A stretch of DNA of 64,000 nucleotides. Origin: an archaeon. Lineage in GTDB: Archaea; Nanobdellota; Nanobdellia; Woesearchaeales; UBA9642. A program made the position numbers and the translations under genes. The stretch lies in the NCBI GenBank assembly GCA_043806035.1, contig JAZDHK010000005.1, positions 2,136-66,135 on the forward strand, read 5' to 3'. Shown here one piece after another: positions 3,201 through 43,478 of the stretch; position 1 is the stretch's first letter; each line of letters starts with the position of its first letter. Under the pieces are notes generated by a model that did not search any database, had not been told where the DNA came from, and worked only from the letters and a program-made list of their open reading frames with translations.

Positions 3201-6200
3201 CGAACAATGCAGGACTGATGCGTACGCTGATGACAGTTATTGGCGTGTAGTTTATCGTGTAATTCCCTTCACTACTCCAGGCAGTGTTGTCAAAACTGTC
3301 ATTGCCCAAGCAATTCCACGTGAAAACGTCAGGATGGGGGAATGCGTACGACCAGCTCGTGCTGTTGCTCACTCCTGCCAGTGTTGTCACATTCGTCTGC
3401 AACGTTCCTGAACTGTTCCACACGTACACCGTCAATGCCTTCACTTGATAGTCGTCGGTGATGTTGCACGCGAGTGCATAACTGTCGTTGGTCGTGTTCG
3501 TCTGGTTGGCCGGGCTGACGAGATGCACGACAGGGGCAATGTCTTCCGTTATCAGTGTGCTGCTGCTGTTGAGCCAGGACGTCACTTGGCTGTTCTGGTC
3601 TGATGCGCTGCACGACAACGTCCAGTTCTCTCCCGTCTCGGTGAAGGCGCTTCCGATGACGCCGACGAGGACTTCCTTGCCCGCGGGGAAGCCGGGGAAG
3701 TAGCTGGAGGCGTCCGTGATGGTGGTTGGGTTAAGCTTTTGTGTGGTGTCGCCAATTCCAAGTTGTCCCCAATTATTATATCCCCAACAGAGTGCTTGAC
3801 CGTCGTTTGCTCGCACACCGCAACTGTAGTGTGCTCCTGCGGTGATGTACCTATACGTTGCGGTGTCGTTGATAAGGGCGGGATTAAGTCTGTCTGTTTG
3901 TGATCCGTCTCCTACTGCTCCGTTATCGTTTTTGCCCCAACAGAGTGCCATACTATCGTTGGCTCGAATGCCACAGGTGTGCTGCCAACCAGCATTCACA
4001 TCAGTATACGCACTCGTGTCATTGATGAGTGTGGGGTTGAGCCGTTGTGTTGTTGTCCCATCCCCCAGAGCGCCTTCCGTATTGTTTCCCCAGCAGAGGA
4101 CTCTGCTGTCATTGGCTCGAATGCCGCATGTATGCCGTCCAAAATCCCCTCCTCCGGTCGAGACCAGTCTGTACCCTGCCGTGTCGTTGATGGGTGTGGG
4201 GTTTTCTCTTTGTGTTTGTGTTCCGTCTCCTAATTGACCATTAGTATTATGACCCCAGCAGAGTACTCTGCTGTCGTTGGCTCGGATGCCGCACGAGTGG
4301 ATGTATCCTGCGCTTACTGACATATACGCGCCGCTGTCGTTGATGAGTGTTGGATTTGTTTTTGGTGTGTCCGTCGTTCCGTCTCCCGCTTGACCGACAT
4401 TGTTTTGGCCCCAGCAGAGCACGCGAGAATCGTTTCGTATAGCACAGGTGTGCACGCGCCCACCATAGATGCTTATGTAGGGAGTAGTATCGTTGATGGG
4501 TGTGGGCGTCCACATGTTGGTGGTGTTGCCATTGCCTAATTGGCCATTATCATTGTCTCCCCAGCAGAGTACTCTGCTGTCGTTAGCTCGAATGCCACAC
4601 GTATGATAATCACCAGAGCTAATAGTGCTGTATGCGCTGTCGTCTGCTGTCAGTGTCGGATTGAGCTTGTCATTTGGAGCATCGCCATCACCTATTTGAC
4701 CATTTGCATTGTCTCCCCAGCATAATACTCTGCTATCGTTCGCTCGAATACCACAGGTGTGCATACGTCCTGCGCTTATTGTTTCTGCCTTGAACAACGC
4801 GTTCTGGTAGATGATGGTGTTGTTGTACCAGGTGTAGTTGTACAGGACTTTGAGGTTTGCCGTGTGGCTTGCGTTGCAGTAGCCGAACAAGTTCAGGAGC
4901 GTGTCTGCCGTCGGCGTGGGATTGATTCTGCTGCCGTTCATTTCCGGATAGCTGATGCAGTCGTTGTTGCTGCAGAAATAGCCTTCGTCGCATTGGCTGT
5001 CATTGAAGCAGTCATGCCACGTTCCTTCAAGGCAGTAGTCGAGGTTGCTGTTCTCATCGACATCGAGGGGAATGGTATCATTCTCGTAGCAGCTCCTGTC
5101 AAAGACGCAACTATTCGTGATGTTGCAGCACGCGCTTGTAGTATTTGTGAATCCGGGAAGCCCTGAGGAAGAGGCTTGCGCGTAGAATTCTGTGCTGTCA
5201 TCGCCGCAGCAGTTGCTGTTGTACGTGCCATCACTCTGGCTCATGATGTCCCAGCTGAAGGAGGTGCTGTTGAGGATGTAGCAGCTCGCTCCGTTGCAAG
5301 CCGTGCTTCCTACTGTTTCGTCGCACGTGCATTGGCTGGCATCATCTGTTGAGAGGCTCGCGCCAGGATACGCTGACGTCAAGTACGGGCAGTAGATGAC
5401 CCTGCCCACCACTGGGCTGTCGCTATAATCAAGGATTTGTGCAGCGATAGTGTTCTCGTTCGTCGTTCCCCACCAGTTGCTCGTCGCATTCTGGTCTTTT
5501 GTTGTTCCCGACATTATCCAATCGTACGTCCCTCCGAAGACGTTGTTGTTTAGGAACGTGAGATTCTGGTCGTTTGTCGAGCTCAATGGGTAGACGATGT
5601 TGAACGTGTTGTTCGTGATGTTGCTCTGCACGACGTAGCTCATGTAATTCTCGTCAGCCAGCTTGAGCACGATGCCGTTGTAGTTGTAACGTATTCTGCT
5701 ATTGTTGATGGTGATGCCAATCACGTAACCTGTGCTGTCATCGTAATAGACGCCCGTGCCGCTGTTGTTCTCTATCGTGATGTTGTTGAATGTGTAGTCT
5801 TGCGAGGGAACTCCTTCGAGATAGACGCCATATTCTGAGCTGTTGGTTATCGTGACGTGTTGGACAGTTAATGCGCCAACATCTCCATCGAACGAAAGCC
5901 CTCTCGTCTGGTTTGTCGTCCCTCCCTTGAATGTGCCTCCGCTGATCGTTGTGCCAAAATCGTGAACGATGACGCTCCTGTTGAAGCCGTACACGTTGCA
6001 GTTGGTGAGGGAAGAGGCACCGTCTGCGAGTATGCCTGTGCCCGTTCCTTGATCGCCGCCGTAGATCCAGTAGTTGTTGCAGTCGACGGCCGCCCCGCTA
6101 GTGACAGTGATGCCTCCTGCAGGACAGCCCAGTCCCGTATCATTGGAAAGGTTGCCCGTGAAGTTCGTGTCTGTCGTTATCGTGTCTCCGCAGCCCACGA

Positions 6201-18451: not shown

Positions 18452-18474
18452 CATTCCTGAATTCTGAGCAGTGT

Positions 18475-18589
18475 GCCTCCGTAGCTTAACGGTGGAGCGT
18501 GCGGCTGTTATCCTTGCTGCGTTTGCACAAAAAAAAACACGGCAGGGCAAGTGACCGCAAGGTCACCGGTTCGAACCCGGTCGGAGGCG
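18475..18589 (+). tRNA. tRNA-Asn (anticodon GTT) containing an intron of about 43 nt at the canonical 37/38 position. The intron includes a 9-A run.
   Basis: Hand-folded cloverleaf. Acceptor GCCTCCG/CGGAGGC, D-arm GCT-TAACGGTGG-AGC, anticodon stem TGCGG/CCGCA with loop CTGTTAT, T-arm ACCGG-TTCGAAC-CCGGT, discriminator G. The antisense ORF 18356..18550 is a shadow. Confidence 0.7.
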
Positions 18590-18603
18590 TTGCACACATC
18601 AAC

Positions 18604-18707
18604 GAGCCCGTAGCTTAGCCTGGTGGAGCATCCGACTGATAAAAACGGCCGGTAAACTGGTCGATTGTCGTTTCGGAAGGTCGCGAGTTCAAATCTCGCC
18701 GGGCTCA
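18604..18707 (+). tRNA. tRNA-Ile (anticodon GAT) containing an intron of about 30 nt
   Basis: Acceptor GAGCCCG/CGGGCTC plus A, anticodon stem TCCGA/TCGGA with loop CTGATAA, T-arm GCGAG-TTCAAAT-CTCGC. The antisense ORF 18508..18708 begins 'MSPARFELATF', the classic tRNA antisense translation. Confidence 0.7.
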
Positions 18708-40569: not shown

Positions 40570-41673
40570 TTATGGATTGTGGTTATGTTCGGGAAACAAA
40601 GACAACAGTCCTTGCTCGGATGCAGGACACGTGCCACGTTCGGTGATAAGACCGGTCACGAGCCGTGCAGGGGTAACGTCAAAACCGTAATTCTTCGTAG
40701 GGCTGTTCGTCACTCGCACGTCGACGATATTCCCCTCGTACAATCCTTGGACGTGGGTTACTTCCCCGCTGTCACGCTCCTCAATAGGAATGTTTGCGCC
40801 GTTACGTAACGTCCAGTCGATGGATGCTGATGGCAATGCAACATAGAAGGGGACTTTGTTGTCATTTGCCGCCAACGCCTTCAGATACGTTCCTATTTTG
40901 TTGGCAACATCTCCCGTGCGCGTGGTACGATCACTGCCAACAAGCACGATATCAATAAGATTTTTCTGCATCAGATGCCCTCCCACATTATCAACGATGA
41001 CCGTGTGCGGGATGCCTTGCTGCGCTAGCTCCCATGCCGTGAGTGATGCTCCTTGATTTCTTGGTCGAGTCTCGTCAACATACACGTGTAGGGGCATGCC
41101 TCGCTCATGTGCGGCATAGACCGGAGAGAGTGCCGTGCCATAATCGACCATGGCAAGCCATCCTGCATTGCAATGCGTCAAGACAGTAACATTTCCTTTT
41201 TTTTGGGCAATGTCCTCGAGCAGAGTGAGACCGTACTTGCCGATACGCTTGCACGTATCCACATCCTCATCTGCCATTGCCTCTGCTGTTGTTAGCGCAC
41301 AGGTTATTTTGTCCTGCACGGTTGTTTCTGCAGAGATTGCTGCAACCATACGATCGATCGCCCATGACAAGTTAATTGCAGTGGGACGAGTGCTGCGCAA
41401 TGCTTCTGCCGCAGTCTTCATACACTCATCGAATGATGCTGACTGCACGTTGTCCTGCAGTGCCTGCTTTGCGGCGATATACATGCCATACGCAGCAGCC
41501 ACACCTATCAGTCCCGCACCACGTACGTGCATGTCCTTGATGGCAACGACGACTTGCTCAAGCGTGTACAAGTCCTCTATGACAAATCGGTGAGGAAGAT
41601 ATCGTTGGTCTATGGTCTTGACTGAACCGTGCTCTTGCCAGATGGTGCGATAGTGCTTCCCTCCTACATGCAT
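40570..41673 (-). CDS. eIF-2B alpha/beta/delta-family isomerase (MtnA 5-methylthioribose-1-phosphate isomerase or ribose-1,5-bisphosphate isomerase)
   Basis: HVRGAGLIGVAAAYG and the other family motifs. 367 aa. Confidence 0.8.
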   Translation of the reverse strand: MHVGGKHYRTIWQEHGSVKTIDQRYLPHRFVIEDLYTLEQVVVAIKDMHVRGAGLIGVAAAYGMYIAAKQALQDNVQSASFDECMKTAAEALRSTRPTAINLSWAIDRMVAAISAETTVQDKITCALTTAEAMADEDVDTCKRIGKYGLTLLEDIAQKKGNVTVLTHCNAGWLAMVDYGTALSPVYAAHERGMPLHVYVDETRPRNQGASLTAWELAQQGIPHTVIVDNVGGHLMQKNLIDIVLVGSDRTTRTGDVANKIGTYLKALAANDNKVPFYVALPSASIDWTLRNGANIPIEERDSGEVTHVQGLYEGNIVDVRVTNSPTKNYGFDVTPARLVTGLITERGTCPASEQGLLSLFPEHNHNP

Positions 41674-42308: not shown

Positions 42309-42422
42309 TGCGGGGAGGAGGATTCGAACCCCCGAAGGCACTAAGCCACATGGCGTTTCTATCTGAAAGCGTTGCTTCCAGATGCCTGAACCATGCCCGA
42401 TTGGCCGCTCCGGCACCCCCGC
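42309..42422 (-). tRNA. tRNA-Leu (anticodon CAG), type II with a long variable arm, containing a 31-nt intron at the canonical 37/38 position
   Basis: The reverse complement folds as: acceptor GCGGGGG/TCCCCGC plus A, D-arm CCG-GAGCGGCCAAT-CGG, anticodon stem CATGG/CCATG with loop TTCAGGC, variable arm TGGCTTAGTGCC, T-arm GGGGG-TTCGAAT-CCTCC. Confidence 0.7.
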
Positions 42423-43240
42423 AAAATCATGTTTAGTTTACGGACTTTCTTCTTACACGTCAGTAGACGCTGTTCTTTTATAAGTTTAACGTATCCGACA
42501 GGTATCCTAAGTTCATAGTGCAGTCCGACTGATTCCCCTATATACACGCGTACGGGATAGATTGTTGAACATATGCCTAATCGCATAAGTGACGATGCAA
42601 TATCTCTGAGTATGTTCGATTGAGGAACGCTTCGGAGGGTTTCTTTTACCTTGTTCCATCTGACAAAATACACCCGTCTATCTTTCATGTTGTATGCATT
42701 TGCCTGCCGTATCAGTTGATTCCTTGTTTTCGCGTCAACAAAAAGACGAACAGACTGCTGCACTGCTACCGTTTTGTGAACACTTGCCTCTGCATTGAAA
42801 AATCCACGAATGAATGCTACATGCATTTCCTTATTTTGAAGAATGTGCAGTGGAGCATTGGGGTTTATTGCGCTTTTTTTTCCTGCAGGATACCCTAACG
42901 AGGCCATGTGCTTTGCAAGGCTCCTTCTGAACCGAACAACAAATATGCCTTCTTTTTTCTGAATCTTCGGTTTGAATCCAAAAACGAACTGAGTTAGGGT
43001 GCTTGCTCTGCGAACGAGATCTTTCTCGTCATGAGAGAAGGTGAGTACAAGATTATAGAGTCCCCCTCGCGTGTTCTTGTATTTGTGCAGCGAACCGTCA
43101 CCGTAGAGATTGCCGAGCAATTCAGCAAATGCCTCTGCTTTCTTTTTCTTGAATGTTGATGATGGATTGTATGTTGTCGATCTTCCTCGCATGGCGTTTT
43201 TGCTTTCTTGAGTTCTTTGCGTATCTGTTCCCTGCCACAC
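42359..43240 (-). CDS. LAGLIDADG homing endonuclease (double-motif), possibly degenerate. The C-terminal 64 nt read into the tRNA-Leu 5' exon and stop inside its intron.
   Basis: LLGNLYGDGSL (motif 1) and IRGFFNAEASV (motif 2). 293 aa. The N-terminal 35 aa are low-complexity. Confidence 0.6.
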   Translation of the reverse strand: MWQGTDTQRTQESKNAMRGRSTTYNPSSTFKKKKAEAFAELLGNLYGDGSLHKYKNTRGGLYNLVLTFSHDEKDLVRRASTLTQFVFGFKPKIQKKEGIFVVRFRRSLAKHMASLGYPAGKKSAINPNAPLHILQNKEMHVAFIRGFFNAEASVHKTVAVQQSVRLFVDAKTRNQLIRQANAYNMKDRRVYFVRWNKVKETLRSVPQSNILRDIASSLMRLGICSTIYPVRVYIGESVGLHYELRIPVGYVKLIKEQRLLTCKKKVRKLNMILRGCRSGQSGMVQASGSNAFR

Positions 43241-43356
43241 CTCACAGCAAGTGCCTCGATAGCATGTATACTATTGCCTTGCTTATACAACCGTATTATT
43301 CTTTCGCGAAGATCTCTTCTCATCTGGGTGCAGGAGAGGAAGATGAATATAAACAT
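42994..43356 (-). CDS. HTH-containing ORF overlapping the LAGLIDADG ORF out of frame. It could be a frameshifted N-terminal DNA-binding part of the same element.
   Basis: RRDLRERIIRLYKQGNSIHAIEALAVRCGREQIRKELKK is a helix-turn-helix-like stretch. The remainder is low-complexity basic sequence. Confidence 0.3.
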   Translation of the reverse strand: MFIFIFLSCTQMRRDLRERIIRLYKQGNSIHAIEALAVRCGREQIRKELKKAKTPCEEDRQHTIHHQHSRKRKQRHLLNCSAISTVTVRCTNTRTREGDSIILYSPSLMTRKISFAEQAP

Positions 43357-43405
43357 TACCGTTTGACCACCGAAGAATTTTCAAATCAATCTAGTGGGTA
43401 AATAG

Positions 43406-43478
43406 TGGGGCTGGTGAGATTTGAACTCACGACATCCACCATGTGAGGGTGGCGTCATAACCACTAGACCACAGCCCC
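43406..43478 (-). tRNA. tRNA-Val (anticodon CAC), no intron
   Basis: The reverse complement GGGGCTGTGGTCTAGTGGTTATGACGCCACCCTCACATGGTGGATGTCGTGAGTTCAAATCTCACCAGCCCCA folds as a canonical cloverleaf. Confidence 0.85.

Follow-up and report, generated by a model that had tools for sequence, protein, structure and literature searches.

Why should the gene of a LAGLIDADG endonuclease run into a transfer RNA gene? The question is raised by a stretch of archaeal DNA of 64,000 nucleotides (GenBank assembly GCA_043806035.1, contig JAZDHK010000005.1; hereafter the window). On its reverse strand, an open reading frame (ORF) with a LAGLIDADG domain begins downstream of a tRNA-Val gene and ends inside an intron-containing tRNA-Leu gene, while an ORF with a helix-turn-helix (HTH) motif overlaps its 5' region in another frame. 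An earlier account of the window, made without database searches (the sequence-only reading), had placed the ORF between these two tRNA genes, and ARAGORN, Rfam and Pfam agree. That account took the locus for a decaying or domesticated mobile endonuclease and mentioned, as an alternative, a free-standing homing endonuclease that targets the tRNA. The comparative data favor the alternative. The window probably holds one of a few related cassettes from Woesearchaeota-like DPANN archaea, each with a free-standing HTH-LAGLIDADG homing endonuclease, that would disrupt the resident tRNA-Leu(CAG) gene and carry a presumably resistant spare copy of it.

A single endonuclease gene with one frameshift

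Among 5.8 billion proteins searched, the window protein has 21 relatives, which are 39-49% identical to it and almost all 302-322 amino acids long. They come from Woesearchaeota-type metagenome contigs, and one is named a Woesearchaeota LAGLIDADG endonuclease. All 21 are single ORFs of about 307 amino acids containing both the HTH and the LAGLIDADG domains. The first ~45 residues of the family follow the pattern MDxxTxxxIIxLYxxGxSIRxI...RExIRxELKKxGVxLRGRG, which corresponds to the HTH ORF of the window; the LAGLIDADG ORF corresponds to what follows. By this comparison, the HTH ORF encodes the N-terminal domain of the endonuclease and is not a second gene.

The sequence-only reading had suspected a frameshift near 43150-43240, and there is one, exactly at 43197-43201. 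Insertion of a single A at this point gives a protein of 321 residues, and the proposed profile check for a single HTH plus LAGLIDADG protein then succeeds, with an alignment to profile positions 1-306/307 at 429 bits. All 35 residues that are invariant in the family are kept in the window copy. Thus, the view of the gene as degenerate does not hold beyond this one 1-nt frameshift, a lesion that may be real or may be an assembly error. One might speculate that the core of the protein is still translatable from an internal ATG (Table 1).

The endonuclease protein is missing from the deposited protein set of the metagenome-assembled genome (MAG), and the protein numbering leaves no accession for it, so annotators probably treated the gene as a pseudogene. 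The shift could also be no mutation at all but a homopolymer error of sequencing or assembly, or else a programmed -1 slip on A-AAA-A through which the full-length protein would be made. The absence of the protein from the deposited set fits this idea, as does the otherwise flawless state of the gene; furthermore, the shift lies exactly within the A5 run, where a -1 slip of tRNA-Lys would equal the A6 product. However, not one homologue needs a frameshift, which argues that programmed shifting is no family trait, and the A5 site is not a canonical X-XXY-YYZ heptamer. A run of five is also short for an Illumina-type homopolymer error or for transcriptional slippage. The neighboring proteins that were looked up are each represented by one sequence on one contig, with no second assembly of the population for comparison. 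An error or a slip is an unlikely, though by no means negligible, explanation.

A nuclease that appears functional

The family has two LAGLIDADG motifs with a conserved acidic residue at the end of each, and LAGLIDADG_3 is detected in 21 of the 22 members; at the N-terminus, homologues match HTH_58 or HTH_7. D48 (the catalytic Asp, within YGDG) and E151 (the catalytic Glu, within NAEA) are invariant in the 22 sequences. An AlphaFold2 model contains two alpha/beta repeats, as in the pseudo-dimeric alpha-beta-beta-alpha-beta-beta-alpha fold of two-motif LAGLIDADG enzymes, with a predicted local distance difference test score (pLDDT) of 88.5 and a predicted template modeling score (pTM) of 0.84. 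The pLDDT exceeds 90 over most of residues 30-275, with a dip to 73 at 51-60, and disorder is predicted only in the N-terminus derived from the frameshift and in the tail encoded by the tRNA gene (pLDDT <50 from residue 282). Foldseek ranks I-DmoI, PI-PfuI, and the Tli VMA intein endonuclease highest for this model, each with a probability of 1.00. The Pho VMA intein endonuclease and I-Tsp061I also belong to this group of closest folds (E about 4e-9 to 4e-7), and the DNA-binding protein WhiA is lower (ranks 22, 32, and 36). By sequence, the nearest entries in the PDB are archaeal VMA inteins (7qss/7qsu, about 6e-5), and one family member has a weak match to LAGLIDADG_WhiA (0.0017). The ratio of nonsynonymous to synonymous substitution rates (dN/dS) is 0.19 for loci L004 and L014 and 0.22 for L012 and L001, indicating purifying selection. 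Together, the modeled fold, the conserved residues, and the dN/dS ratios suggest a nuclease that is apparently functional and under selection.

The family is rare. An exhaustive profile search of 1.84 billion proteins gives 18 representatives at E<=1e-30, followed by a gap to generic LAGLIDADG proteins, and a pattern scan of limited sensitivity finds 2 loci among 185,579 species genomes. There is no family relative in IMG/VR, and a viral origin is thus unsupported. Beyond the endonuclease itself, no flanking gene is common to the window and any other locus.

The endonuclease ORF ends within tRNA-Leu(CAG)

The DNA loci of homologues were taken from species genomes, metagenomes, and exact look-ups. 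Fifteen loci reach the 3' end of the gene: the window, L001, L003, L004, L006, L007, L010-L014, and L016-L019. In 15/15 the ORF overlaps the 5' end of a tRNA-Leu(CAG) gene on the same strand, and because the overlap recurs in all of these related loci, the arrangement is not due to chance. The intron-less tRNA-Leu(CAG) genes among them are confirmed by Rfam at 52-63 bits. In nine of the fifteen, the stop codon consists of tRNA positions 8-10 (U8-A9-G10, TAG), and the last two codons of the endonuclease are the 5' strand of the acceptor stem (for example GCAGGAG, read as Q-E). In the window and L012, positions 8-10 are instead U8-G9-C10, a Cys codon; in L016 they read TGG, and the other loci use a different frame. 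Wherever an in-frame U8-A9-G10 is lacking, translation proceeds to the next chance stop, and the C-terminal tails of proteins P0002, P0013, P0016, P0020, and P0024 are translated tRNA (CRSGQTGMVQ in P0013). It is because its tRNA has U8-G9-C10 in place of U8-A9-G10 that the window ORF reads 18 codons further, to a stop in the tRNA intron.

The running of the ORF into the tRNA is a conserved feature of the family and not, as had been thought, a sign of decay, the normal stop being at tRNA positions 8-10. The sequence-only reading was right that the window ORF stops in the intron, at a TAG at 42359-42361, but it assigned the last 21 codons wholly to the 5' exon. The 293-residue ORF overlaps the tRNA gene by its final 20 complete codons and a single base of a Leu codon, and of the overlapping codons, ~13 lie in the 5' exon and ~8 in the intron. 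Whether homologues end before 42423, which that reading had named as a point that could overturn it, has an answer on neither side: they end 10 nt inside the tRNA. Given that the stop codon lies within the tRNA, processing of a co-transcript by RNase P would remove it. The 3' end of the endonuclease ORF is Lys-rich and is a possible location for a promoter of the tRNA's own.

Rfam misses the tRNA-Leu(CAG) of the window, and so does ARAGORN in its default mode; to detect it, introns must be permitted (aragorn -i), and it then appears as a class II tRNA of 86 nt interrupted by a 30-nt intron. Profiles made from other tRNA-Leu genes match it at both ends, with E=3e-8 for the 5' part and E=1.4e-12 for the 3' part. 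Its intron is at the canonical 37/38 position, the spliced anticodon loop (TTCAGGG) is that of the intron-less tRNA of L012, and the pre-tRNA folds into a cloverleaf plus an intron hairpin. A tRNA-Val(CAC) is the upstream neighbor in L012 and L001 as well.

Introns complicate the annotation of other genes at these loci. The tRNA-Val(CAC) and tRNA-Leu(CAG) of L001 (3703-3799 and 4776-4899) have non-canonical introns in the D-region; they were missed or miscalled by ARAGORN -i and Rfam and were recovered after removal of about 26 and about 40 nt, respectively. Other tRNA-Leu isoacceptors (UAA, UAG) with long or multiple introns adjoin the cassette or the empty site described below (L006 1117-1252, L013 3787-3913, L002 3639-3784, L021 3841-3962), and some of these are miscalled by ARAGORN as Phe or Val. 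For annotation, this means that gene callers extend ORFs of the family into the tRNA while tRNA finders miss the intron-bearing tRNAs.

An orphan tRNA-Leu 5' half precedes the gene

In many loci, a 5' part of tRNA-Leu, consisting of the acceptor strand and D-arm (for example GCGGGAGTGCCGGAGCGGTCAAACGGG), is present 30-60 nt upstream of the endonuclease start codon and is directly continued by TTTAAAAA or TTTATATA. A profile built exclusively from complete tRNA-Leu genes matches this relic in L014 (1.8e-6), L004 (2.8e-6), L006 (5e-4), L017 (1e-3), and L003 (3e-3). Moreover, a profile of the upstream element finds the relic in the held-out loci L008 (2e-9) and L009 (2e-8), its other matches being only real tRNA-Leu genes. 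When made from the upstream elements of 8 other loci and applied to both strands of the whole 64-kb window, the element profile has its best match at 43348-43370 (E=0.017), directly upstream of the endonuclease gene, and the window relic is positionally homologous in the alignment of upstream elements. The relic of the window is recognizable only through this family profile: the tRNA-Leu 5' profile does not detect it (E=9.5), and a Smith-Waterman comparison of the window tRNA with its own upstream region gives a chance match only. Because the relic has decayed and its acceptor strand is gone, the insertion in the window is old.

In 14 of the 15 loci, a distance of 21-25 nt separates the ATG from the end of a TTTAWAWA-like box, a putative promoter for a leaderless archaeal endonuclease mRNA. 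The position of the relic that is equivalent to the anticodon loop reads TTAAAAA or TTATATT, and the relic is consequently not a functional tRNA half. A partial tRNA repeat is present in L011 (24 nt, z=10). Separately, the first 13 nt of L017 (1-13) are a copy (GCAGACGTGCCAG) of the 5' end of the orphan fragment, ~120 nt upstream of the fragment itself (123-149); this could be a genuine short duplication or an artifact at the edge of the assembly.

Occupied and empty sites

The sequence-only reading had called for comparison of empty and occupied loci in related genomes, and one such pair was found. A homologue (87% identical) of the gene that adjoins the L014 cassette lies on L021, a contig of 42 kb that shares gene order with both L014 and L004 and is 83% identical to them in the flank at the nucleotide level. 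L021 lacks the endonuclease and contains, in the equivalent position, an intact tRNA-Leu(CAG) with a tRNA-Leu(UAA) after it. As far as the end of the relic, L004 and L014 align with the left flank of L021 and with the first 25-26 nt of the L021 tRNA (~84% over 568-679 nt); these 25-26 nt equal the L004 relic and include a lineage-specific T10. There, L004 has an insert of ~1.1 kb, composed of the putative promoter, the endonuclease, a different tRNA-Leu(CAG), and 66 nt more, after which identity resumes (25/25 nt) with the final bases of the old tRNA and the 3' flank behind it. The site is thus polymorphic for presence and absence of the cassette, with an intact target in the empty allele, in these relatives. 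The empty state is the ancestral one, since fragments could not have given rise to an intact gene again.

The inserted tRNA differs from that of L021 throughout the D-arm and anticodon stem and resembles instead the native tRNA-Leu(CAG) of L022, a more distant lineage that is endonuclease-free. L004 and L014 are 86.7% identical in the flank and 87.3% identical in the endonuclease at the nucleotide level, and both are more distant from L021 (83%). This equal similarity fits a single insertion after the split from L021. Across the family, the identity of the endonucleases is only about 45%, so the inserted gene must derive from another source.

No empty site was found for the lineage of the window, whose neighboring methylthioribose-1-phosphate isomerase (MtnA) has no relative above 65% identity and whose neighboring proteins form single-member clusters. 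The best relatives of the isomerase (40570-41673) are 63-65% identical and belong to Chloroflexi/Caldilinea bacteria rather than archaea, which suggests that the gene was possibly acquired horizontally, and for the same reason the MAG appears to have no close relative in the databases. Look-ups of neighboring genes were uninformative for L024 and L025. In L024 (1-170, reverse strand), where the neighboring protein is 82% identical, the equivalent site begins with a GIY-YIG/UvrC-like peptide (MLLYVGKAKNLRKRVSSYF) in place of a tRNA or the LAGLIDADG gene; on so short a contig, this is no more than a possible third allele. L014 also contains a second, unrelated LAGLIDADG_3 ORF (5046-5729; Pfam 1.9e-12), 23% identical to the family, which begins 42 nt after the spare tRNA-Leu(CAG) and behind a TATA-like box of its own. 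Endonuclease genes seem to accumulate around this tRNA cluster. A further endonuclease load is seen in L022, where a T2SSE-type ATPase gene (1-808) contains an intein with a LAGLIDADG_3 domain.

A proposed cassette that would replace its target tRNA gene

The structure of these loci suggests a cassette with three parts: a TATA-type promoter that would be built on the orphaned 5' half of tRNA-Leu; a single ORF of ~307 codons for an N-terminal HTH and a two-motif LAGLIDADG nuclease; and a complete tRNA-Leu(CAG), whose first 10 nt serve as the last two codons and stop of the ORF. The nuclease would cut the tRNA-Leu(CAG) gene of endonuclease-free genomes in the region of the D-arm and anticodon arm, and repair of the break would copy in the cassette from a cassette-bearing genome. 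The old 5' half would persist as a relic, now bearing the promoter, while the tRNA of the cassette would take over tRNA-Leu(CAG) function. Presumably, this spare is not cut, owing either to differences in its D-arm and anticodon stem or to an intron within the site. The HTH could add contacts with DNA and may bind the half-site retained in the gene's own promoter (relic GGTCAAACGGG). In the window copy, a 1-nt deletion in the A-run would have split the HTH from the nuclease core. To speak of a tRNA integration hot spot, as the sequence-only reading did, undersells the case: the element appears to occupy what was once a tRNA-Leu gene, and the present tRNA-Leu(CAG) appears to have arrived together with it.

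With the exception of L012, the spare tRNA either differs from the tRNA of the empty site in the D-arm and anticodon stem or contains an intron (window, L001, L011). In a classification that was made post hoc and on loci that are not phylogenetically independent, the intron is present where the D-arm type of the spare is that of the orphan fragment (window, L001, and L011, with L012 as the exception) and absent in the 10 loci where the type is different. This pattern suggests that the tRNA intron protects against the nuclease. More tentatively, and with much less confidence than in the replacement itself, the element might be a natural, selfish 'cleave-and-rescue' system, in which the nuclease would destroy the tRNA-Leu(CAG) gene of the cell and install a resistant copy, spares of the same type being protected by an intron. 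Such an element would be hard to lose: because the ORF overlaps the spare, the endonuclease gene could not be cleanly deleted without damage to the only remaining tRNA-Leu(CAG).

Several observations weigh against replacement by homing. The presumed target site is bounded only to tRNA positions about 26-40, and cleavage within it is something we infer. The spare tRNA of L012 is intron-less and of the type of the presumed target, a case that the proposed immunity does not cover. Taken on its own, the window relic is weak (E=0.017). The core of the relic is kept even where the acceptor strand has decayed, which could reflect common descent together with promoter constraint rather than repeated captures. 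Just one occupied/empty pair was found, and it lies outside the lineage of the window. A 3' profile does not detect an orphan 3' half downstream of the spare tRNA in any locus, and the right-hand remnant in L004 is visible only by eye, so the event looks like an insertion plus deletion rather than clean homing. Finally, L004 and L014 are consistent with vertical descent since the insertion and hence give no sign of ongoing mobility.

Some of these points would fit another route of recombination, either illegitimate exchange between tandem tRNA-Leu genes or the work of an unseen recombinase, with the endonuclease as a passenger that deleted the 3' part of a first tRNA-Leu and does not target tRNA-Leu. 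Tandem tRNA-Leu genes do exist (CAG-UAA in L021, L022, and L006; another tRNA-Leu upstream in L013 and L002), no orphan 3' half was detected, and a like architecture with a recombinase has been published for a tRNA-Thr locus of Caldiarchaeum (PMC3293823). However, there is no recombinase or integrase in or beside the ~1.1-kb insert, the gene disrupted relative to the empty site of L021 is a single tRNA-Leu(CAG) rather than a second tandem copy, and the nuclease is intact and under selection. Such a route is improbable.

We judge equally improbable that the protein is a domesticated, WhiA-like DNA-binding protein with LAGLIDADG and HTH domains that regulates tRNA-Leu(CAG) or is co-expressed with it, the overlap reflecting a shared transcription unit that is inherited vertically. 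The strict linkage and overlap in all loci, the purifying selection, the presence of WhiA among the structural matches, and the apparently vertical descent of L004 and L014 are all compatible with this, and the HTH domain and the conserved upstream element could act as regulator and operator. Yet WhiA has lost the catalytic acidic residues, whereas both are invariant here, and the HTH is C-terminal in WhiA and N-terminal in the family. The very rare and patchy distribution of the family also speaks against a regulator, as does the sister lineage, in which the tRNA gene is intact and the protein absent, whereas in the occupied alleles one tRNA half is broken off.

The remaining candidates can be dismissed: an endonuclease encoded in a group I or bulge-helix-bulge intron, as Rfam finds no group I intron in the window or loci and the ORF is upstream of a complete tRNA and outside the 30-nt intron; an intein, as Pfam finds only HTH and LAGLIDADG_3 with no Hint domain and the ORF has its own ATG behind a TATA-like box; an integrase-type element, as neither the ~1.1-kb insert nor the adjacent genes encode a recombinase; and a giant intron, split tRNA, or alternative splicing that links the 5' half to the downstream tRNA, as the loop of the relic is the TATA box without a Leu anticodon and the downstream tRNA is complete.

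Replacement of the target by a linked spare would have several consequences. Homing endonucleases normally spare their host by residing in self-splicing introns, inteins, or intergenic sites. A LAGLIDADG gene that sits in a tRNA gene, with the replacement tRNA fused to its own 3' end, would represent a third route for endonuclease genes. If the intron of the spare is indeed protective, it would give direct support to the old idea that archaeal tRNA introns shield tRNA genes from mobile elements. Replacement, if confirmed, would tie orphan tRNA halves, divergent 'types' of one isoacceptor, and introns at varied positions to endonuclease attack. The family would also offer a small natural nuclease with specificity for a tRNA gene, and a possible tool.

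Features of the window locus

The features of the locus are collected in Table 1. An Rfam match to 'Plastid-ycf2 5'UTR' on the forward strand at 43405-43478 (44.7 bits, below the gathering score) is spurious and is the antisense of tRNA-Val. Elsewhere in the window, adjacent genes on the forward strand for tRNA-Asn(GTT) (18474-18590) and tRNA-Ile(GAT) (18604-18707) have introns of 43 and 30 nt, respectively, so tRNA introns are common in this genome.

Table 1. Coordinates of the endonuclease gene, its tRNA neighbors, and associated elements (positions in the window)
Feature	Position	Strand	Evidence or remark
tRNA-Val(CAC), intron-less, upstream neighbor	43405-43478	-	ARAGORN and Rfam RF00005, 69.6 bits
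Decayed relic of tRNA-Leu 5' half, D-arm to anticodon stem, cttcggtggtcaaacggtaatg	43354-43375	-	Acceptor strand lost
TATA-like box, TTTATATT	43346-43353	-	23 nt before ATG; presumed promoter
Overlapping HTH ORF, other frame	42994-43356	-	N-terminus of family profile, E=5.6e-8
N-terminal HTH coding segment, MRRDLRERIIRLYKQGNSIHAIEALAVRCGREQIRKELKKAK, frame A	43202-43323	-	Match to family N-terminus
Frameshift site, A5 run (T5 on + strand)	43197-43201	-	A6 would give a single ORF
LAGLIDADG ORF, 293 aa	42359-43240	-	Pfam LAGLIDADG_3, 4.4e-9
LAGLIDADG core coding segment, frame B	42416-43196	-	Pfam LAGLIDADG_3, AlphaFold2, Foldseek
Internal ATG of LAGLIDADG core	43190-43192	-	
Motif 1, LLGNLYGDGS	43091-43120	-	
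Motif 2, FIRGFFNAEAS	42782-42814	-	
Read-through tail, CRSGQSGMVQASGSNAFR + TAG	42359-42415	-	Encoded by tRNA-Leu positions 8-38 and intron
tRNA-Leu(CAG), presumed 'rescue' copy	42309-42422	-	aragorn -i, tRNA-Leu profiles, fold
tRNA-Leu(CAG) exon 1	42385-42422	-	
tRNA-Leu(CAG) intron	42355-42384	-	
tRNA-Leu(CAG) exon 2	42309-42354	-	

Comparison with known systems

The LAGLIDADG genes reported in Woesearchaeota so far are found in group I introns of rRNA genes (PMC6125680), and literature searches found no description of the present HTH-LAGLIDADG/tRNA-Leu family. Functionally, its closest counterpart is SegB of phage T4, a free-standing GIY-YIG homing endonuclease of the phage tRNA gene cluster that recognizes a tRNA-gene sequence and spreads, together with neighboring tRNA genes, into endonuclease-free relatives (PMC2330249). 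Both enzymes are free-standing among tRNA genes. However, SegB belongs to the GIY-YIG class and to a phage, whereas the window family is LAGLIDADG and resides in an archaeal chromosome. In addition, the segB ORF does not overlap a tRNA, and SegB replaces its target by homologous exchange that leaves no broken half behind. Cleavage has been demonstrated for SegB (PMC2330249); for the window family we infer it.

Architecturally, the closest case is the tRNA-Thr(GGU) locus of Caldiarchaeum subterraneum, which consists of a 5' tRNA fragment, a mobile element of 1.8 kb, and a complete tRNA with an extra intron, and which was seen as population heterogeneity (Sugahara et al. 2012, PMC3293823). There, too, an orphan 5' fragment, an insert, and a complete tRNA that differs from the parent of the fragment follow one another. 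In contrast, the Caldiarchaeum element encodes a DNA recombinase and is multi-copy, while the cassette of the window is ~1.1 kb, encodes a LAGLIDADG protein, is tied to a single tRNA species, and has an ORF that overlaps the tRNA.

The closest folds are those of I-DmoI, I-Tsp061I, PI-PfuI, and the Tli and Pho VMA inteins, which, like the window family, are monomeric enzymes with two motifs. I-DmoI shares the Asp/Glu catalytic pair, to which the title of an E117A entry among the structural matches also points. Unlike these intron and intein enzymes, the window gene lies in neither an intron nor an intein, and its product has an extra HTH at the N-terminus.

In fungal mitochondria, endonuclease genes are found at gene ends, where a C-terminal segment of atp6 or cob has been duplicated (PMC6279837). 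Here, likewise, an endonuclease ORF is flanked by one intact copy and one orphan fragment of a host gene. The fungal inserts, however, concern a protein-coding gene of which a partial segment is duplicated, whereas the archaeal family concerns a tRNA and supplies a whole replacement gene.

In synthetic cleave-and-rescue or home-and-rescue drives, which are engineered with Cas9 in diploid animals, a nuclease destroys an essential gene and a tightly linked, cleavage-resistant copy of that gene rescues carriers. The cassette of the window would share this logic, with a natural, protein-only nuclease in a haploid archaeon and by a mechanism that is proposed from comparison of loci. Taken as a whole, the kind of element to which it would belong, a free-standing homing endonuclease with a linked resistant target, is already known; what is new is the archaeal setting, the apparent replacement of a tRNA gene, the overlap of ORF and tRNA, and the putative promoter derived from the relic.

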